Below the pieces are notes generated by a model that saw only the letters and a program-made list of their open reading frames with translations, had not been told where the DNA came from and searched no databases. From the NCBI GenBank assembly GCA_002245135.1, contig NGBS01000304.1, positions 124,001 to 188,000 of the forward strand: a DNA stretch of 64,000 nucleotides. Direction: 5' to 3'. The translations under genes and the position numbers were made by a program. This document shows, in pieces, positions 635 through 64,000 of the stretch (position 1 is the stretch's first letter; the number at the start of each line of letters is the position of its first letter). The stretch comes from Proteromonas lacertae. Lineage: Eukaryota.

Positions 635-2400
635 CTAATTATTCTCATATATCTTTATTCCATGTTCTATAGCTGCAGCTATTCTATCTAATAAATCACT
701 CAATATCATTCTATGTTCTGGTGAAATTAAATTCTCATCTCTCATCATATTTACTTCTTTTTACACATAATTAAAGAATTATTTTTATCATCAAAAGATA
801 AAAAAGATATTTCTTTCTTCAATAGAGATTCATATAATGCTTTACCTCTAACTAAATTTGGACTAATTGCATTATTAGCACTCCAATAATATTTCAATGA
901 TTCATTTATACTTTCAATATAACTAATCAAATTACTGAGTATTTGGTTTGAATTATTTACTCTTTTATTGAAATTATTATTATTACTATTATTATTTGGT
1001 TTTTGTGGATAAAGATTGATTAATATCTGTAATGGATTTACCACTGATTCAAATGTGTTTGATAGATTTGGTTTGTAGTTATTTATTTGTTCAATAAATG
1101 ATTCAATTGTATATCTAATATAATAAATCAAATAATACATACATTTGTTTTGAAGTATTATTACTCTCATTAATATCATTTACTATATTCCTATTTGGTT
1201 GTATGATACCTATATTTATTGGTATTGTTTGTAGCTTTTCTTTAGGTATTAAATCATTCTCACAGTTTTCTAATCTTCGCTTCATTAATACATCTTTATG
1301 AGGTTCTTTTTCCATTCTTTCTAACGTATTATAACTTATTTTATTAATCTCTGAGATTGCTTTATAATACTTTTGTTTTTGATTTAATAATTCTCCTTGT
1401 TCTATATATATATATTAATAATTATATACTTATATTGGAAGGTAATTCTCTATTTTCCCATTCATTCATTGGATCTGTCAACGGTTCTTTAATAATTTCA
1501 TCATCTAATGTTGATACTAAATTCACATCTGATACTACATAATCATCTATTGTTAATAAATAATATCTAATAATAATAAATTATACTAATTTCACGTTTG
1601 GTATATTTCTTTGGTGGTTCTAATACTTCACTTGTTTCAACTCGATCTCTTTTTCTATAGAAATACATTCTTGCAATTTCTTCCCAAAATTCTTTTTCTG
1701 ATTTTAATATTCCTACTTCTTTATCATGTAAATTCTTTATTTTTGGAAACATCTGGAAGATTCGTAAGATGATATCTGATGTTATTTCTATTTTTAAATT
1801 TCCCTAATTTACAGATATTATTTTTTATTTATATACACTTTCATCTTCAGTAATAAATTCATTAAAGAAAGTTATTGTTCTTTTATCTGGATTTGTAAGT
1901 TCAGTTATTTCTTTTTCTTTTAATACATCTTGATGATTATACCACCATTCAACATACGATATACTCTTTGATAATACTTCTTCATTATAAAAACTCTCTA
2001 ATTCAATATCTTGCTTTAATATACCATCTGATTTGAATTTATCTGGAGGTTCTATTCTCTATTAATGTATTTAAATATACCAAATCCAGATTTTATTATT
2101 TTTATTATATTTACTATTCGTGTAATTAATTTTTCATTTGGAAAAGTGAATATGCACATCTGAGAAGAGGTTAGAACTAATCTCACCTTGTTACTTTTAT
2201 TTTGAGCTTCTATATATTATAAATTCATTATATATGCTTTCAATATCTGATTTCGGTATTATAGATACACCTACTGTGTTGTCATAAGGAACGAACTTCA
2301 AACCTGTAATATAAAAGTAAAGTTTCCCTTCATGTGCTTTATTTTCCTTATTTGCATATATTGTTTCTGTTTCAAGGATTATTTCATTTTCTATTGACAT
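635..2400 (-). CDS. GTF2H1: TFIIH core subunit p62/Tfb1 (PH-like domain, two BSD domains), 7 introns
   Basis: Spliced product has an N-terminal PH-like segment, BSD1 (ILKQDIELESFYNEEVLSKSISYVEWW), BSD2 (IILRIFQMFPKIKNLHDKEVGILKSEKEFW), LKYYWSA and a C-terminal helix LSDLLDRIAAAIEHG. Needs a GC-AG intron (2210-2237) and an AT-AA intron (761-810). Confidence 0.8.
761..810 (-). other. Putative U12-type intron with AT-AA termini (50 nt)
   Basis: ATATCTTTTTTATCTTTTGATGATAAAAATAATTCTTTAATTATGTGTAA. Removal joins LLKKE to KEVNMMRDE and restores the p62 C-terminal exon. Confidence 0.7.
2210..2237 (-). other. GC-AG intron (28 nt)
   Basis: GCATATATAATGAATTTATAATATATAG. Removal restores the frame (DIEKAQNKSNKVRL). 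Confidence 0.75.
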
Positions 2401-4285: not shown

Positions 4286-5410
4286 TTAATCAATTTTATG
4301 GCTTTCAAGACATTTAGGATTTAAAGATTCATTATTCACTAAAAATGAAATAAATAACTGCAAAACTATCTGTATAAAGACAGCAATACATAATAAAACA
4401 ACCATACAATCCCAATAATTATTTCTAATCCATGTAAGGAAAAATAAAACAACAATCAAACAAATATACATCCATTTCACAATCATTTGAGTTTTCTTAT
4501 AAAACATAAACAAAAAATAAAATCCTTTTTGTAGACCATCATCAGGAACTATTTTATTATATTTACCAATTGATTTATAATATTCTCCATTATATTCAAC
4601 TATAATATCATTGTAATAGTTAGTATTTGCTTTCCATCTTTGTATATTATGATATTTTAATATTTTAGAAGATTCTTCTTTATTTATTAATTCCCAGCTT
4701 CCGCTACATTCTAATATTGGAATTAAATAATTGGAAGTTTCTAGAATCCATTTGTAAAAAGTAATTAATAATATTATTCCAGAGAGAAATATAATATTTA
4801 TAAGTGATTGAACTGTATCTACTAAAATATCATCTTCAGAAATAAAATATGAAAATATTATCCCTTCTGTTATACCGATTGATAATTGACAGATGAATTT
4901 GATTGTGTATAATTCGTTTGGTATTAATGGGTAATATAAATATATAATAAATCTAAATTAATAATAATTAATAAAAATATACATGATTGTGATGAATACA
5001 AATGCACCTCGTGATACAGTGGTATGTAATGAGATTGGACATAACGATATTGTTAGTAACATAAAGATGAAGGTTATATTAAACATCATTTTTTCATTTG
5101 ATCTGAAAAAGCTTCTAATAAATTGAAATATTGTCATTATGAAAATCCATGAAGATACTAAAATATATTTTCTAGAAAATATCTAGAGATTATAAATTTT
5201 ATGATAAGATATAGATACATCTAAATTGATAGAATAATATGATATAGCTAAGCAGCAACAAATTGTAAATGAGTAAAAGAACTCAAACCATTCCAAAGTA
5301 ACATTATCATACTGTAAGAACTCTTTTTCTTTGTATTTAATTCCACTAACGTTTTGATTTTCATCATGACTATGTATCTGAAAGCTCTTTTTGGTTGTAT
5401 GCCTCTTCAT
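4286..5410 (-). CDS. TMEM39-like multi-pass membrane protein, 2 introns
   Basis: Several hydrophobic helices plus the loop GSWELI...RWKANTNYYNDIIVEYNGEYYKSIGKYN...FYFLF, which resembles the conserved TMEM39 loop as recalled. Confidence 0.6.
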
Positions 5411-5529: not shown

Positions 5530-7303
5530 TCACTCTATATATGTTTTAAGAAAATCTAACAACTGTTTAATGTCTTTATAAGAAGATAAATAACCTAGTG
5601 ATATTCTAACAGCACCAGTAGCTTTATTCTCAATAATATCAGTTTCATCAGCACAAGATGTTCTTACTCTTGCCATTCTATTAATTAAATAGATTATATG
5701 AATAAATACCTTTTAAAAGTCTCATCAGTAACATTTAAATAATGTCTACAAGCACCAGGATTACAATTACAGCCAGTTCTAAAATGAATTTTTTGTTTTG
5801 CAGATTTCATTTGAATTCCATGATATCCTATATAAGATCCATTTTTATGTCTTAAATTCATGGCAATTATTCCACCTTGAATAGATGAGTCATTCTTATA
5901 ATGATTTCCATATATTTCACATAATGGTTTACCGTTTGAATGTTTTAATTCAATGAGTTTACTGTATAAATAGGATGTTAATGAGTAAACGTGTTTGGAG
6001 ATTTTATCAATTCCTAATTCGTTTAGTGATTGATAACCGTATCTTAATGCAGCGATATTTAAGAAATTGATTGTTCCATCTTCGAATTTGGAACATGGTT
6101 CAGCCTATATATGTATAATATAATTATAATAAAAAAGTAATAAAATAAAATAGTCAAAAATAGTGAAATAATATAATTAAAAAAGAAAAAGAAGAAAGAG
6201 TAAAATATAATAATAATAATAATAATGGATATATACATGAAACAAGCAAAACTGACTCTCTTCTGAAGCATACACTACAGTGCCACCACCAAAATATTTC
6301 TTTCTCATGAAATTGGTCATATCATTTCTCACTAATAAAGCACCTAAACCAGTAGGAAAACCAAACATTTTATAAAATGATAAAGTAACAAAATCTGGTT
6401 TGTATTTATGTAAATCTAATCTTTGAGTTGGAGCAAATGCAGCTGCATCTAATAACACTTTCCATTCATGATTCTATAGAAAATAAAAAAGATCAATACA
6501 ATTCCTCTTTCAAAATCACATTCTAACAATGTGTTATCATGTATTGCTTCAATCCATTCTAAGGGATATTTCACTCCTGCAAAATTTTCTTCTGCTGGAT
6601 AAGCAAATAAACTGTAGATTGTTGTGGTATTGAATGTTCTGTATGGATTTCGTTCCTTTTCTAGTAATTGACATTGTGATTTTGTTGGTAACATTTCTGG
6701 TGGTACACTTTTCCATTGAACACCGAATTCACTTGCAATTTCACGAATTCCTAAAACACTGTTGTGGTTTTCTCGTAAATAAAGATATCTACTTCTGTTA
6801 GTCCATGGAAATGAATCTCCTACTAACCTTAAAGCTGCTGTTGTACCACTTGTGAAAATTACTTGATATTCTGCTTGAGTTGTGTTAAAAAAATTTAGAA
6901 CTAAATCTCTTGCAGTATTTACCTATTTCATATGTATTAATACTATATAAATTAATACAGCATGACTTGTTCTTAAACTTGATGGATTTATACTATGAGT
7001 ATTACCATACAGATTATTTGATAACTCTCTCATCACAGAATCAAGCTGAGACTTACGATATACACCAGCTCCTGTGTAATCAAGATATGCATCATGCTTA
7101 GCTCTTTGAAGGTCCTTTTCCAATATTTCATCTAGTTTACCATCATACCCGTAATCTGGATAGTTTTTCATGAAATCGAAGAATTCAACATCTGTAACTT
7201 CATCGTCTGGTCTTAGAACATCTTTGATAAAGTCTTCATAGTCAAACCCCTCATCGTAACAAAACACAGATAAACATAAAAAGAAGATAACGATGAACTT
7301 CAT
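5530..7303 (-). CDS. Molybdenum cofactor sulfurase-like PLP enzyme (class V aminotransferase domain only) with N-terminal signal peptide, 4 introns
   Basis: YLDYTGAG, GNTHS, VIFTSGTTAALRLVGDSFPW, LLDAAA, SFYKMFGFPTGLGAL (PLP Lys), FEDGT, FRTGCNCNPGAC, GAVRISLG. TGA at 5530 leaves no MOSC domain. Confidence 0.88.
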
Positions 7304-7682: not shown

Positions 7683-8369
7683 ATGGATGATCTTGATGCA
7701 GAAACTTTAGATGCAGCTGGATTTGAGGCTATGGGTGAAGGATCATTTGATGATGCGATTAATTATTTCTCTCAAGCTATAGAAAAGAATCCAACTAATG
7801 GAGTGTATTATACAGATAGATGTGCTGGTTATCTAGGGAAACTCAATGTAGAGAAGGCAATAGAAGATGGCAAAAAGGGAGTTGAACTTTGTCCTGATAA
7901 TGCAAGATGTAACATGCAGTTAGGAGTGATTTATGATTTTCAGAAAGAATGGTCAAAAGGATTGGAGTGTTATGAAAAAGGATTAAAGCTTGAGCCAAAC
8001 AACGAAACAATATTAGCGTTAGTGAGGCATGATAAGACGAGACTAAGCAATAGAGGTGAAAATATATTAACAGGTGTAGAATTATTAGAATTTTTAGATT
8101 CAAAGGGCGAAGAAGTAGCATATTTAACAAGATCACCAGAATTGTATTATTTTATAGATGATATAAGTGAAGATTATCAGAATGCTATAAATTACGTTGG
8201 TGATCCAATAATGGATTTATTTATAGAGTATATGAAGAGTGACATAATTCCAGAAAAAGATAAACAAAAGTGGGAAGAAGCAATGAAAGAAATTGAAAGA
8301 AAAGTTGAAGAAGAAAAGAAAAAAGAAGAAGCAGAAGCTGAAGAAGATGATGATGAAGAAAATAATTAA
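7683..8369 (+). CDS. Sti1/HOP-like TPR protein (3 TPRs plus DP-like segment), paralog A, intronless
   Basis: TPR1-like pattern (AINYFSQAIEKNPTN..YYTDRC..AIEDGKKGVELCPD..YEKGLKLEPNN) and a DP-like segment PELYYFIDDI...GDPIMDLF. Confidence 0.75.
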   Translation: MDDLDAETLDAAGFEAMGEGSFDDAINYFSQAIEKNPTNGVYYTDRCAGYLGKLNVEKAIEDGKKGVELCPDNARCNMQLGVIYDFQKEWSKGLECYEKGLKLEPNNETILALVRHDKTRLSNRGENILTGVELLEFLDSKGEEVAYLTRSPELYYFIDDISEDYQNAINYVGDPIMDLFIEYMKSDIIPEKDKQKWEEAMKEIERKVEEEKKKEEAEAEEDDDEENN

Positions 8370-9010: not shown

Positions 9011-9679
9011 ATGGACGATCTTGATGCTGAAATTATAGATCAACTTGGATATCAAGCTTTGAAAGCAGGAGCATTTAGTCAAGCTATTGCCTTATATACT
9101 AAAGCAATTGAAAAAGATCCTTCAAATGGTATTTATTACACTGACAGATGTGGTGCTTACCTTGGGAATGGTGAAACAGAGAAAGCAATGGAAGATGCTA
9201 AGAAAGGGGTTGAATTATCTCCAAATGATTCTCGATGTAACATGCAATTAGGTATTATATATGATGCTATGAAAGATTATGCAAAGGGGCTAGTATATCA
9301 TGAAAAAGCTTTACAACTAAATCCAAATGATGAAATGATATGGGGTTTAGTAAGACATGATAAAACAAGATTAATGAAAAGAGGTGAAGATGAATTAACG
9401 GGAGTAGAATTTCTAGAATTTCTTGATTCAAAAGGAGAAGAAGGCAAATTATTAACTAGATCACCAGCATTATATCACTTTATAGACGATATAAAGGAGA
9501 ATGTTCAACATGCAATTAACTATTTAGGTAATCCTATATTAGATTTATTCTCAGAGCATATGCTAGGAGGAATTATTCCTCCTGAAGTTGGAGCTAGAAG
9601 AGTTCCATGTGATGTAGCTAGAAGAGAATATGAAAAAACAAGAAGAGAACATCAAAAACAAGAAGATGGAAATAATTGA
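9011..9679 (+). CDS. Sti1/HOP-like TPR protein, paralog B, intronless
   Basis: Colinear with 7683-8369 (shared MDDLDAE, YYTDRC, RCNMQLG, LVRHDKTRL, EFLDSKGEE). Confidence 0.75.
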   Translation: MDDLDAEIIDQLGYQALKAGAFSQAIALYTKAIEKDPSNGIYYTDRCGAYLGNGETEKAMEDAKKGVELSPNDSRCNMQLGIIYDAMKDYAKGLVYHEKALQLNPNDEMIWGLVRHDKTRLMKRGEDELTGVEFLEFLDSKGEEGKLLTRSPALYHFIDDIKENVQHAINYLGNPILDLFSEHMLGGIIPPEVGARRVPCDVARREYEKTRREHQKQEDGNN

Positions 9680-12925: not shown

Positions 12926-13673
12926 TTATGCAGAAATTTTGTTCAATATTTGTGAATGAGCAGGACTTGCTGAACTATGCTGTGATGACTGCTCTTCTGG
13001 TATTGCATATGTTGCAGTTCCAGTTTTTATATTCTGATAATAGCTCTTTCCTTTTTCATCATAATACTTAGAGTAGTTTTTATCCCCTATTTCTACTATT
13101 ATCTCCACCATAATAATTCTGATAATCCTTTTTAAAATCTTGTTTGTTATATTTCTCTTGACCATAACCATATTCACCGTAATTCCCCTTCTTATTGTCA
13201 TAATTATACCACTGATTCTGGTCAGCATAATACTGATTCCAATTATCACTGTATTTATACGGACTTACTGAACTAGTGTTGCTAATTCGACTACTTTGAT
13301 ATTCACTCTGATTATCACCATAACAAGTATCATAATCAACTTTTGCTTTAATAAAACTCTCTTTGGGTGGATAACCATAATCATCAACTGTACCAACATT
13401 TTCAAATGTTTTAGGATCATAATAATTGTTGTTTGTATAATCAAAATAATATCCAGATGATGGATCATAGAAGGATGTTTCAGTAGGACGACTTGCAACT
13501 ATTAAATACATAAATACAAAATATATATTTATATATATATACTTTGTTCTAATAATTCAGATGTTCTTCTAGGATGTGTTATTCTTGACACTCTTGAAAC
13601 TCTACTGACATTTGAATAACGATTAGGTGATGTGTTTTTAGGTGGTGGAGGTGGTAAACTATTAATAAATAAA

Positions 13674-13704
<31 letters not shown>

Positions 13705-16182
13705 TAATATATAGATACTTATCAGCACCAGTAATAAGTGCTCTTTCTTTACATCTTTTTTGTTGCAATAACACCATTTCTAAACGAATACGTCTTTCTG
13801 GATCAAATTTCTTTCTTTGCAACGATTCTCTATTAAAGAAATAATTAATATACATATATATATACGCTGCTTTTCTATCATTTTCTTCTTTATCCTTCAT
13901 CAATGCTTTAATATCTTTCATATATCTATCTTGTAATATTCTCTTCAATTCTAATTTATCTTTTCTCTTCTTTTCTTCTTCTTCTAATTTCAATCTTTCT
14001 TCTTCTTCTTTCTTTATTTGGGCTAATTTTTCTTCCTCTTTCTTTTGGGCTTCTCTTAATGCTTTTTCTTTTTCTTCTCTCTTCTTTCTCATTGCTTCAT
14101 CTTTTTCTTTTCGTTTTCTTAATATTTCTGCTTCTTCATATTGTCGTTTTTTATCTAATAAAGCTCTGTAATTATCTTCTTTCTCTTTTAATGCTTGTCT
14201 TCTTCTTCTCTCTTTCTCTAACAATTCTTTCTTCTTTTTATATTCAGATTTCTTTCTTACACAATAAAATTAAAGAAAAAAATGTCAATATAACAATCAA
14301 AAAGATATTTTCTTCTTCTAAAAATTTAATTCTTTCAATTTCTCTCTGATTTCTTTTCAGTACATATACTCTTCTACACACAAACATTTTATAAGTGGCT
14401 TGAATCTTACTAGCTGCACGATGAAATACTCTTTCTTTCCATTGAGATACTCTATCCCAGTGAAATGATAAGAAAGTCCATTTCTTCTCATTATTTTGTT
14501 TTTTAGTTGTAATTAATGGAAATCCTCTGTATATTGGACATGTTTTTGGCCTTTTCATTGTTCTTACTTGTTCAAATTCTTCTTTTTCTTTATCTATTTC
14601 TTCTTTTATTTCTTCATATTCAAATTCTAATTTTGCAGCTTCTGAAGCAGCTTGTAAACGTTCTGAAAGATCATTGGTTGAATTGAAACGTAATTTATCT
14701 GTTCTTTTCATATCTTTCGTTAATTTCTAATACAATAATAATAATAAAGTAAAATACATACTTTTTCTTTATAACTAAGTGATATTCTATGTTTATATTC
14801 TCTTTTAATACATTCCAATAGTTGATTCTGTGCTTCAATATCGTCATCTTTATATAAATGTTTAATCCTCCAATCTTCTCTTTCTACAGTCGATAAAGTG
14901 CCTAAAGTGACATGAATTCTTCTCTCAACTCTTTCAAAATCATTTTTCTCAAAATAACTCAAAGTTCCTATTGATATTAAATGTGTAACATATCTTGGAG
15001 TTAATATATCACCAACTAAACCTCTGAAGGCTTGAGGATAGGAGGAATTAGTGTCGACTATTTCAAAGATAGTAAAACGGTTGAAGCCTTTTGGTTGAAC
15101 AGGTACTATTAATAGGAAATGAGAAAATAAATGAAGAAAATAAGAAGAAAATGAAAAAAATTAACAATAAACATAAAAAAGAATTAGAAAAAGATAAAAA
15201 CAAAATATAATAGTGAGTAGAAAATAATGAAAAAAGTAGAAGAAAATATAAAAACATTATAATATATATACAGATATGACCAGTTATTAATAGAGAATCT
15301 AAACCACCTTGTAATATAAACTGTTTTAAAATATAAGGTTTCTTCACACAATGTTCAGCCAATGAAGATAATGCAATTGTACATGATAACTGTAATGCAT
15401 AATCACTTTCTGGATGATTCCAAACCTCTTCCGAGCTTAACGGAATTATTTCATTTGAGTTGATAATTCCAGCATATATACTTAATACTTCTACAACACC
15501 ATTTAAACATAGTACATCAATTGATTTTTCATCGAAACATAAATTTATCAATATATACACATATCCAGCTTTCATCCTTTCTTCTGTACTTTCATAAAAT
15601 AATTTCACAATTAATTGAAGTAAAGGACTATTGGATATTTCATTTCTTAATCGTTTTTGTGTTGATAGTTGTATTAAGTCACATATGGATGGATAGACTG
15701 AATCTACATTTTTTAACTCACTGACCATTAATTCATAATATCTGTGTGGAATTTCAAATTTTGAATAATCTACATTTGGAGGAGGTGGTGCATTGTATAA
15801 TGATCGTTTTAATGCGTTTTGTCTTACTGTTCTATTGATAAATGTTCTAGAAGCTGGTAATCTTTCTGATTCTTTTCTTTTTAAGATTAATCTTGCAGAT
15901 CTATTTTTTAATACTTTTGCTTCACGAATTTCATCTTCTCTATCTCTTTTAGTTGGAATTTGACATTGCTAAAACAATAAAAGATAATAATTAAACTGGA
16001 TCAACAATGCAACAATAACTGTTTTCAAATTTATAAGTATAAAATCGACTCTTTGGACCAACAGATTCTAAATCAATGAATAATACTATTTTCATACCCA
16101 TGCACATCTGATCAATCAATATTCTCTCCCATCGATATATTTGTCTCATAAATAAAGATCTACATGAACGAACTACTGACAT
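12926..16182 (-). CDS. Multi-exon protein: ARM-like repeats, IQ motif, charged coiled coil, OCRE-like and WW-like domains
   Basis: Exons splice in frame from ATG 16182. IQ motif AASKIQATYKMFVCRR; OCRE-like FYDPSSGYYFDYTNNNYYDPKT; WW-like YSKYYDEKGKSYYQNIKTGTATYAIP lies in the +1 frame after 13080. Confidence 0.65.
14257..14308 (-). other. Putative U12-type intron with AT-AA termini (52 nt)
   Basis: ATATCTTTTTGATTGTTATATTGACATTTTTTTCTTTAATTTTATTGTGTAA. Removal gives FLEEE-RKKSEYKKKKELL in frame. Confidence 0.65.
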
Positions 16183-27289: not shown

Positions 27290-29074
27290 ATGTCATTATT
27301 TACATGTGGTATAGATTTAGGAACTACTTACTCATGTATTTCCTCTAGTAGAGACGGTTTAGTTGAGGTTATTCCTCAAGATTCAGGAAAGAGGACCATT
27401 CCATCGTATGTGTCATACACTGATGAAAGAATAATAGTTGGCGAAGCAGCGAAGAATAACATTTATAAGAACGTAGAAAATACTATATATGATGCTAAAA
27501 GAATGATTGGTCACAAATTTACAGAAGCAGAAATACAAGAGGATATAAAACATTGGGGATTTAAAGTTCTTCCTGACAAGAATAATGATTGCTTAATAGA
27601 GGTTAAATACAAGAAAGTATTAAATCATCTTCATCCGCAGAATATACAAAGTCAAGTGTTAGCTTGCTTAGTAGAATCTGCTAGAAGAAGACTTGGTGAA
27701 GGAGAAGATAAGATTTGCCATGTTGTTATCACTGTTCCTGCGTATTTCAACGATAATCAAAGAAGAGCAACAATTGAAGCAGGTGAATTAGCTGGTTTGA
27801 ATGTTTTACAGATAATAAATGAGCCAACAGCAGCTGCTATTGCATATGGATATAAATACTATAAAGGAAAAGAAGATCGAACAATCTTAGTATATGATTT
27901 TGGAGGTGGAACATTTGATGTTTCAATAATCGAAATCAAAAATCAAAAGATAACTGTAAAAGCAACCGGTGGTGATACTCATTTAGGAGGTGAAGATATT
28001 AATAGAAATATAATGAATTACTATAAATTACAATTATTAAATGAAGCAGATTACGATATAGATAATAACAAGAAAAAGAAATATAGATTATTAAATGCAA
28101 TTGAAGAAGCAAAAATAAAACTAAATATTCTTACTGAAGTAGATATTGAATGTGATGTATTAGATGATAATGCAGTAAATAACAGTCTTTCAAGATCATT
28201 TTTTAATAAATTAAATGAACAAATTTTTCAAAAGACTATTACTATTGTTAAAAATGTTTTAGCTGAAAGTGAATTAAATGTAAATGATATTGATGATATT
28301 GTATTAGTTGGAGGAAGTAGTAGAATTCCTAGAGTTCAAGAATTATTATCAGAATTTTTCAATGGCAAAGAATTGAATAAAGATATTAATCCAGATGAAG
28401 CAGTTTCATTTGGTGCAGCAATTTTAGCTGAAGATATATTACAAGGAGTAAAAGAAAGAAGGAGGAAAGATGGAATAATTGAATTGATTGATACTCAAAC
28501 TGATCAAGTATTAAATCCAAATGATTCAAAAATGAAATCATATAAATGCTCAAATAGTAAAATATTATTATTATCAAAATCAATATTTAAACCAGATAGT
28601 GTAGTTGACAAAATATCATCTCCTGAATTATTACTGCCTTTATGTAAAAGCAATAATATTGTGTCTTTTAGTGAAGGAGGAAGAAAAATTCCAGTTGAAA
28701 GGAGTAAAAATAGAAAATTAATAGTTAATGATGTTTTATCGATTAGTATTGGAAAAGAGGATGCTGGAGATGTAATGTCAGTTATATTGGAGAAACAAAC
28801 ACCAATACCAGCACAAAATACGAAACTGTATTGTACAACTGAAGATAATCAATCTGAAATTGAATTAGTATTTTATCAAGGAAATAAGAAGAAAGCATCA
28901 ATGAATAAGATGTTAGATCGATATGTTATTAAAAATATTCCTAAAAGGAAGGCAGGAATGGTAGAATTAGCTGTAAATATGGATATAAATGAGAACGGAA
29001 TATTGACTATTAATGTAATACCTGTAAATAGTGATGATTTTAAGTTAGTTAAATTAACAATTCAAATTAATTAG
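27290..29074 (+). CDS. Divergent Hsp70, paralog A (no lid, no EEVD), intronless
   Basis: GIDLGTTYS, VITVPAYFN, INEPTAAAIAYG, DFGGGTFDVS, LVGGSSRIP, NPDEAV. Ends just after the substrate-binding beta domain. Confidence 0.92.
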   Translation: MSLFTCGIDLGTTYSCISSSRDGLVEVIPQDSGKRTIPSYVSYTDERIIVGEAAKNNIYKNVENTIYDAKRMIGHKFTEAEIQEDIKHWGFKVLPDKNNDCLIEVKYKKVLNHLHPQNIQSQVLACLVESARRRLGEGEDKICHVVITVPAYFNDNQRRATIEAGELAGLNVLQIINEPTAAAIAYGYKYYKGKEDRTILVYDFGGGTFDVSIIEIKNQKITVKATGGDTHLGGEDINRNIMNYYKLQLLNEADYDIDNNKKKKYRLLNAIEEAKIKLNILTEVDIECDVLDDNAVNNSLSRSFFNKLNEQIFQKTITIVKNVLAESELNVNDIDDIVLVGGSSRIPRVQELLSEFFNGKELNKDINPDEAVSFGAAILAEDILQGVKERRRKDGIIELIDTQTDQVLNPNDSKMKSYKCSNSKILLLSKSIFKPDSVVDKISSPELLLPLCKSNNIVSFSEGGRKIPVERSKNRKLIVNDVLSISIGKEDAGDVMSVILEKQTPIPAQNTKLYCTTEDNQSEIELVFYQGNKKKASMNKMLDRYVIKNIPKRKAGMVELAVNMDINENGILTINVIPVNSDDFKLVKLTIQIN

Positions 29075-29136
29075 TGTAAAGCAACATTTTTTAGTGTAAA
29101 ATGGGGTATGAAAATTTACATACACCTAATTTTAAA

Positions 29137-30888
29137 ATGTCTCTATTTACATGTGGAATTGATCTAGGTACTACATATACATGTGTATCACATAAAAAAG
29201 GGGATAAAATTGAGTTTATCGATTTTGATAATGATAAAAGAAACTTCCCATCATATGTAGCTTTTAAAGATGAAGAAATAGTAGTAGGTGAAGTTGCTAA
29301 AAATCAAATATCTAGTAATCTAAAAAATACCATATATGATGCTAAAAGAATGATTGGTCATAAATTCAACGAAGAAGGGATTCAAGAAGATATAAAACAT
29401 TGGGGATTTGCTGTGGAAGAAGACAAAAATGATGGTGGCTGTTTAATTAGAGTAGAATATAAAGGCGAAGAATATAAAGCAAAACCTCAAGAAATATCAA
29501 GTCATGTATTATCAGCTGTATCAAAAAGGTTAATCAATCGTTATGCTATAGAAGAAGGTAAAACAATTCATGCTGTAATAACTGTTCCTGCTTATTTTAA
29601 TAATGAACAAAGAAAAGCAACAATTGAAGCAGGTGAATTAGCTGGTTTGAATGTATTACAGATAATAAATGAACCAACAGCAGCTGCTATTGCATATGGA
29701 TATAAATACTATAAAGGAAAAGAAGATCGAACAATCTTAGTATATGATTTTGGAGGTGGAACATTTGATGTTTCAATAATCGAAATCAAAAATCAAAAGA
29801 TAACTGTAAAAGCAACCGGTGGTGATACTCATTTAGGAGGTGAAGATATTAATCAAAACATTTTTAATTTCATTGTTAAAAGGATAAAAGATGCTAATGT
29901 AGATGTAGATATTACTTTAAATAGAAAGACAGAGTTAATGAAAGCAATAGAAGATACAAAAATTAAATTAAGTAAATATGATGAGAGTGATATATCATCC
30001 AGCATTTTGGAAGATTATGATATAGATCAGGAATTAAGTAGAGAAGATTTTAATCAAATAAATAAAGATATATTTGAAAAGACTATGAAAACAGTCGAAA
30101 AAGTATTAAATGAAAGTGGCTTAAGAAAAAATGATGTTGATGATGCTGTTCTAATTGGAGGAAGTAGTAGAATTCCTAAAATTCATGAATTGATGGAAGA
30201 TTTTTTCAATGGAAAAGTATTAAATCAAGATATAAATCCAGATGAAGCTGTAGCTTATGGTGCAGCAGTCTTAGCTGAAGATATTTTGAATGGAGTTCGA
30301 GAAGAAAAAGACAAAGATGGAAAAATCATATTAATAGACATGAAAACTAACAAAATATTAAATCCAAAAGATAGGATGCTTAAGTGTGTTGACCCTAAAG
30401 AAATAAACTCATGTAGTAGAAAAATGATAATACCAAATCAAAGTAGTGGAAGAAAGATTTTAGTTAGTGAAGGTCTTAAAGAACCAATAGAAGAAAGTAG
30501 TCAAAGAAAACTAATAATTGAAGAAATATTAACTCATAATATTGGTATTGATGTTATTAATAATGAATTTTCACCTATTCTAAAACATGGTAATAGAATT
30601 CCATATACCAACACTGAAAACTATACAACACCTTATGATAATATGAAAGTTGTGTCCATAAAATTCAACGAGGAAATTGATTCACAAGAAAAGAAATATG
30701 TATATATATTTAAGTATTTGTTGAAAATTAAACCACTTCCTGCTGGAGAAGTAAAATGTGATATAAAAATGACTCTGAATAAGAATGGTATACTTAATGT
30801 TGAAATAATACCGAAAAATTCTAATCATTTTGAAAAATGTGATTTAGAATTTGGAAGATGTGACGGAAACATTGTTATAAGAAAATAA
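29137..30888 (+). CDS. Divergent Hsp70, paralog B (no lid, no EEVD), intronless
   Basis: Same motifs as paralog A. Start placed at MSLFTCG (29137) by homology with A. Confidence 0.92.
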   Translation: MSLFTCGIDLGTTYTCVSHKKGDKIEFIDFDNDKRNFPSYVAFKDEEIVVGEVAKNQISSNLKNTIYDAKRMIGHKFNEEGIQEDIKHWGFAVEEDKNDGGCLIRVEYKGEEYKAKPQEISSHVLSAVSKRLINRYAIEEGKTIHAVITVPAYFNNEQRKATIEAGELAGLNVLQIINEPTAAAIAYGYKYYKGKEDRTILVYDFGGGTFDVSIIEIKNQKITVKATGGDTHLGGEDINQNIFNFIVKRIKDANVDVDITLNRKTELMKAIEDTKIKLSKYDESDISSSILEDYDIDQELSREDFNQINKDIFEKTMKTVEKVLNESGLRKNDVDDAVLIGGSSRIPKIHELMEDFFNGKVLNQDINPDEAVAYGAAVLAEDILNGVREEKDKDGKIILIDMKTNKILNPKDRMLKCVDPKEINSCSRKMIIPNQSSGRKILVSEGLKEPIEESSQRKLIIEEILTHNIGIDVINNEFSPILKHGNRIPYTNTENYTTPYDNMKVVSIKFNEEIDSQEKKYVYIFKYLLKIKPLPAGEVKCDIKMTLNKNGILNVEIIPKNSNHFEKCDLEFGRCDGNIVIRK

Positions 30889-55274: not shown

Positions 55275-55760
55275 ATGGTTAGTATATTGAGTCATTTAAA
55301 ATCTTATTCTACCACAAAGATATTAACTGTGAAAAATACTAAGATTGTATGGTTATTATCCATTTTTGATGTAGGGATGGCTACATATCTTTTTTCAGCT
55401 TGCTGTCTTTGCATATATCATTGTATGGCAAGTAATCATATCGAAAGGATATCAGAGAAGAGAAGAATTTCATGGTATATGTCTAAATTACTGAAATAGG
55501 TTCCTCTGATATAAAGGTAAAGGGAAACTCACTTAATCGACAAGGTGAGCTTTATGATACTTATGAAATTGTGAATCCACCATTCGTATAACAAATTGAA
55601 ATATTACTGTTAAATAGGAAATAAACGGAGCATTTATAACAACCAACTTTATAAAAACCGGCCCACAGAGAAAAGGTGTATGTTTTGGTAATGAGACGGT
55701 ATTAGCACCTCCAGCAGAAGTAAGTGAAGCATGTATAGATCATAAATGTGAAAAAGGAAA

Positions 55761-55798
<38 letters not shown>

Positions 55799-56756
55799 AA
55801 ATAAATAAATAGAATAACAACACATGGAATAACTACAGGAATTTGTAATACAACAGAATGGGGAAATGAAATGTGTGAAATAAGAGCTTGGTGTCCTTTA
55901 GAACCACCAGAACCAAGTGGGGAAAATATATTGGATAATGTATAATATATTATAATATTATTAAAATAGACAGCTAATTTCACCTTATTAATCAGAGTAG
56001 ATGGTGTATTTCCATCCTATCCAGAACATCCAGTAAGTAATGGTGAAAGTTCAGATTTAAGATGGAATTATAATTTATTTTATCTCAGTGATTTAGTTGC
56101 TGCAGCTTGTCAACCAAATGTGAAATTAAGTCCATCTGTTCCTATTAGTTCTCAACCAAAAAGATTACCTTTGTCTTATCATAGAGATATATTGAATAAA
56201 GGAATTGTACTGTTGTTAGATGTGAATTATGATTGTAATTTAGATAGAAGATGGTCAAAGTATTATATTTAATTATTTATTTATTTAATAGATGTTTACC
56301 AACATTTGATGTGAATAGAATTGATGTTGAAGATGGTATTTCTAGTGGATTTATATCTTTTTTTTAATCATTTTATTTTTTCTTAATTTTATTTCTTTCT
56401 GTACAATTATCGATATACTAGTTATTATTATCAGAATGATACGAGAGTGAGGGATTTATTCAAACTGTTTGGAGTTCATGTATTAGTGAATATTGCTGGA
56501 GTTGGTAGACAGTATAGGTTTATTTATCCATTCATATAGTTTTGATTTAGTACAGACTATGATTACTATCAGCACAGGTGTTGGATTACTTTCTATTGCA
56601 GTAATCTTGACTGATTTTATATTGGAATATTTCCATAGTAAGAAAGATGTGTTTGAGAAACATAAATATGATTATTTAGATTATGCAGGAAATGAGTTAG
56701 AGAATAAGAAGAATAATCGTAAAAATTTGATAGAAGATGATGAAGGATATATATAA
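55275..56756 (+). CDS. P2X ATP-gated ion channel, about 8 introns including one AT-AC
   Basis: YSTTK, TM1, KGYQ, IKVKG, CEIRAWCP, SSGF|NYRY, RDLFKLFG and TM2 (FDLVQTMITISTGVGLLSIAVILTDFIL). Confidence 0.9.
56353..56404 (+). other. U12-type AT-AC intron (52 nt)
   Basis: ATATCTTT...TTTCTTAAT...CTGTAC. Removal restores the conserved P2X motif SSGFNYRY. Confidence 0.9.
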
Positions 56757-57468: not shown

Positions 57469-59860
57469 ATGAAAACAATATTTTTGAGTATATTAGTGAA
57501 TATTTTGTACTGCAATAGTTTTGCTTATTGTTTTGAGCGTTAGTGGAAGTAGTTCAAACCATTTGAGTTTTGTTTTATAAGATTTATTTATTTTAGGAAG
57601 ATTAGCAACAACAGAAGCAGTTCCAACAGGAACTGTAATTAAGTTTACTTCAACTGATAGTAAAAGTGCAAAAACTACATATTTAGTAAGTGATGATGTA
57701 GTTGTAGCTCAAGTAGGAAGTGTAGATAAATACATTGTTTATACAGTATCTAAGAAAGATTCAACAACAAATCCAACAAAAGGAAGTGTTTATACTTTAG
57801 CATTAGAAAAAACATTAAGTGGAGAATGTAGTGGTTCTAGTAATTCCAAAACATTAAAGAAATGTAGTGATATGACTACTCCAACACATTGTCCAACTGG
57901 AAATTCAGATACTGGTATATAACATATGATTATAATAATGAATAGTAAAAACTATAACAATTATTTATACTCCACCAACATCGGCAGTAGCAAGAGATAG
58001 TATATTATCTACAACTGCAGGCATAGTAGAAGTAACAGGTGAATATGTTGATAAAACTGATAATGTATTTGTTGTTGATTCAGATAGTGCAGTAGAATTA
58101 GTTGATGATGGTATTGATAAAATATTATTAATATTTAAATAGTAAAAACAACAACAAATGCTGAATTAGTAAAATATCAAAAAGGTACTTTTTGTGAAAT
58201 AACACCACCAACAAAGCCAGTTCCAGAAGGAGCAATAATTCAGTTCAAAGTAGGAAGTGCAGGAAATGAATATACCTATTATATAAGTGACAATTCCTTA
58301 TTGATTAAGAAAGATGAAAATAATTATATTGTTTATACAGCTAGTAAAAGTGAATTAACAGATAAAACTGGAAGTAGTTATAGTTTGAAGTTAGAAAAAG
58401 AAAAGAGTGGAACATGTACAGCTGAAAAGACATTAACAGCATGTAGTTTAATAACTAAATCTCCTGATTTCTGTCCAGCTACAGGTAGTGAATGTATAAT
58501 ATATAAATAATATATAATATAAATAGTAACAAAAATCGAAGTAAAATATACAGCTGGTGCTGATGCTGCAGCTGCAGGTACAGTAGAAATAACATTTACA
58601 CCTGCTGTTTCTTTAATTGCAGATGTAAAAACAGTTACTTTAAAATCATCATCTGATGGATATACTACTTTAAAAGAGATGATAAGTAAATATGTTGATG
58701 GTAGTTACTGTAAACCAGCAACACCAACTACAACAGTAGTTCCAGAAGGAGCAATAATTCAGTTCAAAGTAGGAAGTGCAGGAAATGAATATACCTATTA
58801 TATAAGTGACAATTCCTTATTGATTAAGAAAGATGAAAATAATTATATTGTTTATACAGCTAGTAAAAGTGAATTAACAGATAAAACTGGAAGTAGTTAT
58901 AGTTTGAAGTTAGAAAAAGAAAAGAGTGGAACATGTACAGCTGAAAAGACATTAACAGCATGTAGTTTAATAACTAAATCTCCTGATTTCTGTCCAGCTA
59001 CAGGTAGTGAATGTATAATATATAAATAATATATAATATAAATAGTAACAAAAATCGAAGTAAAATATACAGCTGGTGCTGATGCTGCAGCTGCAGGTAC
59101 AGTAGAAATAACATTTACACCTGCTGTTTCTTTAATTGCAGATGTAAAAACAGTTACTTTAAAATCATCATCTGATGGATATACTACTTTAAAAGAGATG
59201 ATAAGTAAATATGTTGATGGTAGTTACTGTAAACCAGCAACACCAACTACAACTATAACTCCATCGGTTATTCCATCTGATAAAATTGTAAAAGAGAATG
59301 TAACTCTGACATCATCAACAGCTACTCATCTATTTGCTTCTGATAGAATATATGTACTAGCTGGAAATCTTCAATTGGTTGTTGAATGTGAGAGAGAAAA
59401 TAGTATAATTCTTTGAATATATTATATAATATATATAGAAGATAATAATTATACTGTTTATAAAGTTAAAAAGAATGCAGATGATAAAGTTGTAATAGAT
59501 GCAGGAAAGTCAGGTGCAATTGATGGAAGTAAATTAGCAAATGAAGAATTTGCTTGTCAATTGCCAGTTAAGTTTGTTTCATTAACTTATATTACAAGCC
59601 ATTGTGAAAGTCAAGAAGCTCAGAATGTCACTAATGATTTGAATGAAATGATTGATGATTTCTTGAAAGAAACTCAATATTCATTTACTAAAGATACAGA
59701 AACAAATGATGTGTATTTCTATAATGATAAGACAGTTGGTGATAAATATGGTGTAGTTGTTAGTGAATCTGAATCTGGAATTCATAAGCTGGAAGATGGA
59801 TCAATCAGATCAGTTCCAATTGTTATTGCTTTATTAGCAGTTATTTTACCGTTAATTTAG
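57469..59860 (+). CDS. Secreted/surface protein with signal peptide, repeated Cys-containing Thr/Val-rich domains and hydrophobic C-terminus (possible GPI signal), about 7 introns
   Basis: Spliced MKTIFLILLIVLSVSG...HLRRLA. Ends SVPIVIALLAVILPLI-stop. Confidence 0.7.
58219..59253 (+). repeat. 519-nt intragenic tandem duplication including an intron
   Basis: 58219-58734 matches 58738-59253 by eye, including the intron GTATAATATATAAATAATATATAATATAAATAG. Confidence 0.92.
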
Positions 59861-61152: not shown

Positions 61153-64000
61153 TTAATCTTTTTTAATTTCATTTTCATGAACTTCTATTTTACTAGATTC
61201 TTCATTGTCTTGTTTTGAAGTTTCATTTTCTTTCTTTGGTTTGTCATCTTCTTTAACTTCTTCATCTTTCTTTGCACTTTCATTTTTATTCTCTTCTTCA
61301 TTTTCTTTCACTTCTTCTTTATTGGAAGTTTCATTATTATCATTTTCTTGCTTTCTATTCTCATCCTCTTTCACCTCTTCCTTCTCTTCTTCTTCTTTCT
61401 TTGGAGTAGTTTCATTTTTATTATCCTCAATTTTAGAATTATCATTCTCATTATCTTTTTCTTTCAGTTTTTCAACAGAATCATTACTATTCTCTTTCAC
61501 TAAATCATTATCTTTTACTACTTCAGATTTTTTATCATTATTATCATCATCATCTTCTTCTTCTTTATCATCATTATCTTTTGGATTAATCTTCTTCAAC
61601 TTCTTTGGAATTGGTTTAATAGGTTTAATAACTACATGTGATGGTTTTTTATTCATATTTTTATTCAGTAACAATAAAACTATTACAACTATCAAAACAA
61701 CACCAACAATCACTCCAACTATTATTCCAAATATTTCACCACCATTTAGTCCATCATTTTCACTGTTATTCTTACTATCACTTTTGTCAAATTTACCTTC
61801 ATTATTATTTTCTAATAACTTATTCTCATTCAATATTTTAATTGCTTCTGAACCAACTTCTATATCTGATACCTTATAAACATCAGTATATGGATTATTG
61901 ATCAATATTTCTTTAAACATATTCTCTTTTAACTTCAATTCAGCTTCTATTGATGATTTTATTTCTTCATTAGAATATATATAAGTATACACTCCAATAA
62001 TATCACTATTGCTACTTTTACTTTGAATATTTCTAAATCTCAAATTATTATTGATGAAATAATTAACATTTGGTGGTTTTGAATCAACAATAACAGTTAA
62101 ATTCTTATCTTTATTTTTATTAATCACTTCATTCACTGTATATAAAATACTTTTATACGTATTTAAATCATTTATATCAAAACTTTTCTTCAAGTTATAA
62201 ATCATTATTGGATAGACAGTTAAAGATACTTTCTCAATATCATTTGTTATTGAAGGAGGAATAAAATCTTCATTTATATCTAAACTTATTCTTTCACAAT
62301 AATTAATAGTTTTATTATCCCATTCACCATAATATTCCTTTTGATTATTATTCTCTATTACTTTCAATATACATTTTCTAGATATATAATATTTGTAATT
62401 CTTTGGACAACTAATGATTGATTCACTATTTACTTCAGTTTCTTCCCATATACCATCTTCTGGACAATTGATTTTGTTGACTGTTATTTCTATCTTTTCT
62501 ATATTACTTTTACCTACTTCATTTATTCCATATATTTCATAAACATGTGATGATAATATTTCTTTTCCTATACCACTAATTATTCCTGTTTTTTCATCAA
62601 ATTCTAATCCATTTGGTAACTTTGTTGGATTAATCACATATTTATCAATTTTGCCACTCACTTTATATGGTTTTATCTCTAAATTAGTAATATTCACATA
62701 TAAATTATAATATTTATCTAAGTATTGAATGGTTGGTATTTTCATTTCACATTTACCCATTACTTCACTAAAAACAGGATTAGAAACATAAGGACAATCT
62801 CTTAACACAGTTCCTTCATAATCATCAGATTTCATATAAACAGAACAATCTAAAATCGATTGAAATCCAATTGCAACACTTTCAAAGCCATCTTCAGTCT
62901 GTTTACAATATAATATATTCACTGTAAACTTCAATTCGATTATATCACTACCAAAACTACCACTAAATGCTTGTATTTTTACTGATTTTGGTTTAGAGGT
63001 TGAACTGTAGGGATTTCCTGATATTTCACCAGTTTCTTCATCCAATTCTAAACCTAATGGTAAACTACCATCAACAATCATGAATTTATCAATTTTAATA
63101 TTTCCATTTTCACTGCTAATGGATGGACTTATTGTTTCAATATCTAAATTACAACCAAATACATATTCTTTAGGATTATAATCAATTATTGGTTTTGGAG
63201 GAATACAATTCTCTTCATTTATATATTCATCCCATTTTGGCTCAATTCCATAACCACATAATCTATAAGCATAACCTTTATAACCACTTTGACATTGTAC
63301 TTTGTATTTTGTTCCTTCATTTACTTCAGGAAATCCTAAAATTGGATCTTCTGGACATTTTGGTTGAATTATTTTGATTGAGAATTTAAATGTCTTTATT
63401 ATATCATCTTTTGCTTCAATTTCTATAACAATTGATGTTGTTTGATTTGTTAATGGATCTATTGTGATTTTAGTTGGATTTCCTGATAATATTCCAGTAT
63501 TACTATCTAAAGAAAGACCATAAGATTTCAAAGATTCACTTTCATGTTTAACAGTAAAAACAGTATGAGTTAATCTTCCTTCAAACTCAGGAATAATCTC
63601 CAAATTATGACCAATATATAAGTTAAATAAAGAAGAATTATATTCAAATTTGATTGGATTAGGGAATCTACAATCATTAACCATATTTTCCCATTGAGGA
63701 GTAATTTTATCATTAGAACATTTTATATATTTATCACCAACTTGACCTTCTATTTCACATCCATAACTTATCTTTTGACCTGCATATTTCTTTGGCAAAT
63801 TATCAGTCGGTAAACAGTAAGGCATTTCTATTTGAATATTCACTTTTGTTGAGATTGAATTGAATGAATAATAGCCATAAACAGTGAATTCTATTATTTC
63901 TTTATTCAAATATTTTTCTGTATCAACTATACCATAGATTGTACCAGTTATTCTATCAAATTTTAATCCATTTATTACTGTTTCAATATTTGGTTGAATA
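61153..64000 (-). CDS. Large type I surface protein with alternating putative-Ig (He_PIG-like) and Cys-rich modules (5' end outside window)
   Basis: Repeated LP.GL..D..TG.ISG and C..DG.W..T......CP......R.C...W modules, TM helix GEIFGIIVGVIVGVVLIVVIVLLLL and a charged tail. Confidence 0.85.
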   Translation of the reverse strand, partial: IQPNIETVINGLKFDRITGTIYGIVDTEKYLNKEIIEFTVYGYYSFNSISTKVNIQIEMPYCLPTDNLPKKYAGQKISYGCEIEGQVGDKYIKCSNDKITPQWENMVNDCRFPNPIKFEYNSSLFNLYIGHNLEIIPEFEGRLTHTVFTVKHESESLKSYGLSLDSNTGILSGNPTKITIDPLTNQTTSIVIEIEAKDDIIKTFKFSIKIIQPKCPEDPILGFPEVNEGTKYKVQCQSGYKGYAYRLCGYGIEPKWDEYINEENCIPPKPIIDYNPKEYVFGCNLDIETISPSISSENGNIKIDKFMIVDGSLPLGLELDEETGEISGNPYSSTSKPKSVKIQAFSGSFGSDIIELKFTVNILYCKQTEDGFESVAIGFQSILDCSVYMKSDDYEGTVLRDCPYVSNPVFSEVMGKCEMKIPTIQYLDKYYNLYVNITNLEIKPYKVSGKIDKYVINPTKLPNGLEFDEKTGIISGIGKEILSSHVYEIYGINEVGKSNIEKIEITVNKINCPEDGIWEETEVNSESIISCPKNYKYYISRKCILKVIENNNQKEYYGEWDNKTINYCERISLDINEDFIPPSITNDIEKVSLTVYPIMIYNLKKSFDINDLNTYKSILYTVNEVINKNKDKNLTVIVDSKPPNVNYFINNNLRFRNIQSKSSNSDIIGVYTYIYSNEEIKSSIEAELKLKENMFKEILINNPYTDVYKVSDIEVGSEAIKILNENKLLENNNEGKFDKSDSKNNSENDGLNGGEIFGIIVGVIVGVVLIVVIVLLLLNKNMNKKPSHVVIKPIKPIPKKLKKINPKDNDDKEEEDDDDNNDKKSEVVKDNDLVKENSNDSVEKLKEKDNENDNSKIEDNKNETTPKKEEEEKEEVKEDENRKQENDNNETSNKEEVKENEEENKNESAKKDEEVKEDDKPKKENETSKQDNEESSKIEVHENEIKKD

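Follow-up and report, generated by a model that had tools for sequence, protein, structure and literature searches.

Within the 64,000-nucleotide stretch of DNA analysed here (the window; GC 26.0%, stop codons genomic), three AT-ended stretches are best explained, with a probability of about two-thirds, as U12-type introns that are removed by an essentially ordinary minor spliceosome and whose donors, pushed by AT pressure, would have come to carry T in place of C at position +6, a base that a G·U wobble would accommodate. Each putative intron opens with ATATC and a T-run, has a TTCTT(T)AA box that lies 11-19 nt before its end, and closes on A-N, and its excision would restore the reading frame. 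One of them, a 52-nt AT-AC intron in a P2X purinoceptor gene, is a well-supported prediction of a genuine intron, with the following features.

55275..56756, + strand: P2X purinoceptor gene, predicted 400 aa, 8 introns
56353..56404, + strand: predicted U12-type AT-AC intron, 52 nt, phase 0, seventh of the gene's eight predicted introns
56353..56365, + strand: donor, ATATC plus T-run, with T replacing C at +6 (sequence)
56380..56387, + strand: predicted U12 branch site TTCTTAAT, branch A at 56386 (-19)

The P2X intron starts with ATATCTTTTTTTT, contains TTCTTAAT and ends in TGTAC. As the earlier note had proposed, its excision restores the P2X sequence SSGF|NYRY in frame: the joined flanks read CLPTFDVNRIDVEDGISSGF|NYRYTSYYYQND, giving the protein ...DGISSGF|NYRYTSYY.... 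The exon 3' of the intron has the P2X N-F/Y-R motif at its very start (Pfam PF00864 from position 280), and the two flanking exons match this family at E 0.0055 and 3e-5 (the latter being the 3' exon), both under the curated cut-off. The gene's exons also match PDB chains of P2X4 and P2X7/1/2, with the N of the N-F/Y-R motif equivalent to N292 of P2X7. All nearby donor/acceptor pairs were then scored against seven longer homologs, yielding 1904 open in-frame junctions. Only four of these are GT/GC-AG, and all four delete NYR (scores 342-414 vs 653 for AT-AC). Five junctions outscore AT-AC, all of them 64-nt deletions with no known termini, imitating a loop that is shorter in distant homologs, and two 1-nt slides of the AT-AC junction encode the identical protein, again with termini of no known type. 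With the large P2X exon, a word-index search gave no match among longer proteins, a HMMER search gave 13 hits, and a metagenome contig scan with the P2X exon returned 453 pattern matches, of which none was confirmed.

Relatives carry an intron at the same place. At the SSGF|NYR position, the read-through tails of P0057, P0077 and P0078 are solvable only as a 34-nt GT-AG intron and those of P0067, P0079 and P0084 only as a 31-nt GT-AG intron, with N-Y/F-R resuming after the inferred introns in both clusters. Because the tails of two clusters resolve as GT-AG, the junction appears to be an intron position in three lineages, minor here and major in two, and a conversion between the two types, perhaps from minor to major, is likely. 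Six of the eight possible 11-nt prefixes of the P0067-type GT-AG intron, searched in the ST1/ST4/ST7 intron table, returned at least 12 rows, none fitting among those listed.

The two remaining cases are AT-AA and share their donors (ATATCTTTTT), branch sequence and TGTAA ends.

14257..14308, - strand: predicted U12-type AT-AA intron, 52 nt, phase 1; branch TTCTTTAAT, A at 14270 (-14)
12926..16182, - strand: host gene of this 14.3 kb intron, encoding an ARM-like, IQ-like, coiled-coil protein; start uncertain, Pfam hits below cut-off
761..810, - strand: candidate U12-type AT-AA intron, 50 nt, phase 0; branch TTCTTTAAT, A at 771 (-11); from motif and coding potential only
635..2400, - strand: TFIIH p62 (GTF2H1/Tfb1) gene, host of the 810-761 candidate; BSD exon vs human p62, E 3e-5

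The exon upstream of 14308-14257 is 81-90% identical to relatives until FLEE(E/Q)N-I and diverges exactly at the donor. Beyond it, the tails of nine cluster members end in three different frames, as expected of the frame-changing length variants that T-run indels in a non-coding stretch would give. A three-frame reconstruction for the relatives yielded TTTTCTTTGATTTT[CT]TTGTGTAA, in which donor positions +1 to +4, the branch box with its A at -14 and the TGTAA end are conserved while the middle carries frame-changing indels; the reconstructed box, TTCTTTGAT, varies between purines as the U12 branch consensus does. With the ATATC donor, the 14.3 kb intron has no frame-keeping AG acceptor. This genome does have an internal GT-AG alternative that keeps the frame (14294-14252), although in P0100 and P0103 the tails leave no room for a G ahead of the branch box. 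The p62 case is a candidate inferred from its motif and a 41-codon open frame; GT-AG alternatives exist (for example, 845-757), and its acceptor is ambiguous, as lengths of 50, 53 or 56 nt each preserve the frame. The Pfam BSD match in this gene lies below the cut-off, its last exon matched no p62 structure and an ESM Atlas query with the p62 exon gave no usable hit. A possible 28-nt GC-AG intron in the same gene (2237-2210, - strand) is a parser call only.

These data bear on whether the unusual features might be artefacts, with the T at +6 arising from long reads that collapsed a CC homopolymer to C, and/or with frameshifts, retained sequence or other-ended GT-AG introns behind the AT-AA cases. 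Indel errors do occur in the assembly, in its 31-52 kb repeat, bases inside an intron are unconstrained by frame, and the p62 gene could stop at the read-through stop or use GT-AG 845-757. However, independent relatives require T or A at +6 and retain the TGTAA end: in ten read-through tails from two clusters, a comparison covering the 14.3 kb intron only, +6 is T in nine, A in one (a single contig) and C in none, which disfavours homopolymer error. Moreover, splicing from GT donors upstream of the 14.3 kb intron would cost the protein 18-40 residues from a part conserved right up to the donor, and no GT/GC-AG option keeps the NYR of P2X. The artefact reading might at most concern p62, and we regard it as very unlikely as an account of the whole.

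An intron census, covering the window except for the 31-52 kb repeat gene and the last 3 kb, was made with our own parser, which predicted 85 introns in 23 regions; 18 were dropped by eye and 67 kept. It is not a blind test, since the parser permitted ATATC donors and favoured GTAT and TAG. The kept introns comprise 64 major and 3 minor-type ones (4.5%, CI 0.9-12.5%), in agreement with the earlier note, which had counted three among roughly 70. The size difference it described, 50-52 nt for minor introns and mostly 25-36 nt for major ones, was likewise recovered: the minor-type introns measure 52, 52 and 50 nt and are longer than the major introns (Mann-Whitney P=0.008), which have a median of 31.5 nt, with 48/64 at 25-36 nt and 6/64 at 50 nt or more. 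The same is true of the TGTA(A/C) ends, with TGTAC in P2X (56400-56404), TGTAA at 14.3 kb (14261-14257) and TGTAA in p62 (765-761); this puts G at -4 in all three, as against 2/64 major introns, and the end is conserved in relatives of the 14.3 kb intron. C at +5 and a TCTT(T)RA box are each present in all three minor-type introns and each in 2/64 major introns, and the branch A lies at -19, -14 and -11. The major introns are strongly stereotyped (A+3 in 61/64, T+4 in 63/64, TAG in 64/64), a regularity that is partly circular, as the parser favoured these features.

It is very unlikely, given these differences, that the three stretches are relics spliced by the major spliceosome or by a hybrid pathway, that is, U2-type AT-AC/AT-AA introns, with the major GTAT donors corresponding to the minor donor at +2 to +4. 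Such a pathway would agree with the A+3 and T+4 of major donors, parser preference included, and with the major-type intron at the P2X position in two other lineages, but it is at odds with the C+5, the TCTT(T)RA box and the greater length of the minor-type introns, as well as with the minor-specific proteins listed for the low-GC Blastocystis genomes, the likely lineage.

Chance occurrence was assessed with 200 local dinucleotide shuffles of the window. Neither the donor 8-mer (24 observed vs 27.3 in shuffles) nor the combination of donor, branch and any A-N end (4 observed vs 3.1) was enriched. The pattern with a TGTA(A/C) end, which was chosen post hoc, was found three times against 0.05 in shuffles, none of the 200 shuffles reaching three. 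As only this post hoc pattern is rare, the case for minor introns is built on frame and homology instead of motif counts. The earlier note had also spoken of a possibly dense minor-intron class, which did not hold up: compared with a baseline of ~1% in Blastocystis ST1, 3/67 gives P=0.03 unconditioned and P=0.14 when corrected for selection of the window by one such intron, and the minor-intron density in the window is indistinguishable from 1%. A fourth AT-type call (AT-AT, 5604-5570) had been dropped, being at a region edge, without a branch box and interrupting apparently coding sequence, and a fourth loose motif hit at 28386 (- strand), antisense within HSP70, was taken as chance. Ciliate-type genetic codes were unnecessary, the long frames being open under the standard code.

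Blastocystis ST1 already offers much of what is seen here. Gentekaki 2017 (PMC5608401) reports 346 U12 introns among 35,412 (~1%), all four snRNAs and seven specific proteins, and Larue and Roy 2023 (PMC10639083) report 253 minor introns, 77% of them AT-AC, with a median of 39 nt, the shortest in their data; the minor introns of ST1 are the shortest known and show an unexplained AT-AC excess. The intron table of PMC5608401 has at least 336 rows starting with ATATCC and at least three with ATATCT. Among the 68 ATATCC rows of 336 that we tallied, 41 end in AC, 24 in AG, 2 in AT and 1 in AA (40% non-AC), 60 measure 37-42 nt (median 39 vs a 30-nt major mode) and 2 reach 50 nt; G stands at -4 in 19 of the first 38 ST1 AT-introns by our own count. 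The window introns resemble ST1 U12 introns in their AT start, shortness, size mode above the major mode and mixed ends, and one of the three ATATCT rows listed is itself AT-AA. Most of the claimed novelty is therefore not new: a distinct size mode and a relaxed last base, which the earlier note had put forward as marks of a modified minor spliceosome, are present in the window, but both, as well as the ~1% density, are already known from ST1.

What appears new against the short minor introns of ST1 is the donor +6 shift, the AT-AA ends and the greater length, with density and spliceosome rewiring unproven. Where ST1 fixes C+6 and relaxes +7/+8 (183/336 rows read ATATCCTT), the window has T at +6 and on through +10. 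Its minor introns are 50-52 nt long as opposed to mostly 37-42 nt, and their branch A lies at -11 to -19 compared with about -5 to -7 in most ST1 rows (by eye). AT-AA ends make up 2/3 in the window, one of these being the inferred p62 candidate, vs 1/68 ST1 rows (P=0.004).

Similar features occur farther afield. Excerpts of a study of Physarum polycephalum (bioRxiv 2020.10.12.336362) describe a 'U12-like +6T' donor class and many AT-AA ends (27% AT-AA among non-canonical U12 introns). Unlike the window, which has a near-canonical branch box and no expansion shown, Physarum has minor introns numbering >20,000, and its branch motif has become TTTGA, with a corresponding change in U12. Among the non-canonical minor termini of animals and plants, AT-AA is reported as the most frequent (PMC10639083); about 4% of minor introns there are given as non-canonical, whereas AT-AA is apparently common in the window. 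With canonical AT-AC introns of animals, plants and oomycetes, the window introns share the ATATC core, a TTCCTTRAC-like branch 11-19 nt from the end and a dispensable AG (PMC3584512, in part); they differ in being much shorter and in their C-to-T changes at +6 and in the branch box. In the openly searchable literature on Blastocystis and Proteromonas we found no account of minor introns of this lineage, and neither 'minor' nor 'U12' occurs in PMC12129017 or its preprint. As far as the available part of its InterPro table extends, that paper lists U11/U12-25K in three, PDCD7 in two and RBM41/RNPC3 in three of three low-GC, tortoise-associated Blastocystis genomes.

The decisive feature is donor position +6. 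All three minor-type introns read ATATCTTT and have T at +6, as the earlier note had observed, with T continuing through +10. T or A takes position +6 in all ten relatives' tails, in contrast to ST1 (+6 T in 3/3 here vs 3/339 among the ST1 table rows listed, Fisher P=3e-6). However, T is also the background base inside the minor-type introns (55%) and stands at +6 in 33/64 major introns, a frequency at which three out of three would be T with P=0.14. According to the parts of the papers available, one of C+5/C+6 may be T in U12 donors (PMC2846911, citing a personal communication), and all three introns follow the corresponding donor rule (RTATCCTT with one such T). C+5/C+6 pair with G6/G7 of U11 and G14/G15 of U6atac (PMC4980772), U11-48K recognises +1 to +3, and distance from the branch largely determines the acceptor, AG not being required (PMC3584512). 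In duplex models with the U6atac stretch, the canonical donor reached -6.8 and the window donor -4.1 kcal/mol, a difference of 2.7 kcal/mol; pairing the window donor with a G14A U6atac gave -4.4 kcal/mol, a gain of only 0.3. Duplexes of the branch boxes with the U12 stretch ranged from -4.7 to -5.8 kcal/mol (-5.6 for P2X), compared with -8.5 for the consensus.

These values also bear on a co-evolved minor spliceosome, in which G6 of U11 and/or G14 of U6atac would have mutated to A, or the pairing would have shifted its register within the T-run, so that ATATCTTT would be a new Watson-Crick consensus. The near-uniform T in the window and in nine of ten relatives' tails, set beside its rarity among the ST1 rows listed, would fit this, as would the 2.7 kcal/mol cost of the wobble and the snRNA-intron precedent at the Physarum branch site (in the accessible part of bioRxiv 2020.10.12.336362). 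Furthermore, C+6 is probably under selection in ST1, because 336/339 of the rows listed keep it, which counts against drift. Against co-evolution stand the gain of merely 0.3 kcal/mol, the T-rich background, and the relative with +6 A, which no single compensation would fit. A scan of metagenome contigs for a G14A U6atac core gave 102 matches, none in a U6atac context by eye and 0/20 tested positive with Rfam, but this is weak evidence because close relatives of the organism seem absent from that collection. Since +6 T is on record as a tolerated variant and compensation in U6atac would gain so little, drift is likelier than a rewired spliceosome, and we consider co-evolution unlikely. The compensatory U11 or U6atac change predicted in the earlier note is thus unneeded, as U already gives a wobble. 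A search of the 64-kb window with Rfam found nothing above gathering and hence no minor snRNA, as expected for 64 kb. A still broader proposal, in which the whole lineage had been rewired, with C+6 replaced genome-wide alongside a matching U11/U6atac change, AT-AA as the main terminus, a TGTA acceptor signature and minor introns at 2-4%, a density second only to Physarum, is distinctly improbable.

Under the preferred reading of drift within an ordinary minor spliceosome, U11-48K would read +1 to +3, G6/G7 of U11 and G14/G15 of U6atac would pair with C+5 and the base at +6, and U12 would pair with the branch box. The acceptor would be placed mainly by branch distance, which would permit AC, AA, AG or AT alike. 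We infer that every departure from the consensus is a C-to-T change opposite an snRNA G, so that wobble pairing and a longer T-run could maintain recognition with the snRNAs unchanged; the T-run through +10 may add further A-U pairs. The 50-52 nt length may stem from the U11/U12 di-snRNP, whose larger footprint would set a higher minimum; the same would hold in ST1 (37-42 vs 30 nt), where the introns would have shrunk further.

If drift alone operates, the finding adds only modestly to known biology. A deeper-branching relative of ST1 whose minor introns are longer, end in AT-AA and are relaxed at another donor position would show how the minor splicing code drifts inside a single genus, and the window introns make wobble tolerance and snRNA co-evolution a testable alternative. 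For annotation, AT-AA/+6T introns are likely to escape both standard gene finders and intronIC at its default scoring, leaving broken P2X and TFIIH p62 models in low-GC protists.

Several other features of the window were recorded, including two on the - strand.

4289..4957, - strand: TMEM39 exon
61153..63999, - strand: He_PIG (putative Ig) repeat membrane protein

The available part of the PMC12129017 table places TMEM39 only in the three low-GC Blastocystis genomes and not in Proteromonas, lists 72-95 cadherin-like proteins per low-GC genome, and has the P2X domain 14 times in Proteromonas, once in each low-GC Blastocystis and in none of five human-subtype genomes. The same source gives a genome GC of 21.5-23.1% for low-GC Blastocystis and 27% for Proteromonas. 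Judged by gene content, the window would probably derive from the deep-branching, low-GC Blastocystis lineage, as TMEM39 and a single P2X domain coincide in no other columns of that table and the window has both, together with the He_PIG protein and GTAT...TAG introns near 30 nt. Proteromonas would be the less likely source, although the 26.0% GC of the window exceeds the low-GC range and is closer to its 27%. The RPF2 of the window has three matches at 68-92%, the remaining ones being at or below 47%. The Blastocystis downstream motif TGTTTGTT was sought in the 70 nt after 20 predicted stops, with no control set, and was exact at one and within one mismatch at five.

Repeats and duplications are frequent. 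A giant gene for a K/E-rich coiled-coil protein (31190-53958, - strand) is built from a 342-nt tandem unit and larger duplications and has many frameshifts resembling long-read indel errors. Two tandem, divergent HSP70-like genes (27290-30888) are apparently intronless in intron-rich surroundings and share an identical central block, and two tandem TPR paralogs (7683-8369 and 9011-9679) are intronless as well. A class-V aminotransferase gene (5560-7303, - strand) has a signal-peptide-like start, and its product presumably resembles the N-terminal half of molybdenum cofactor sulfurase. Finally, the gene for a predicted secreted protein (58207-59250) contains a 519-nt internal duplication with an identical 33-nt intron in each copy (58494 and 59013).
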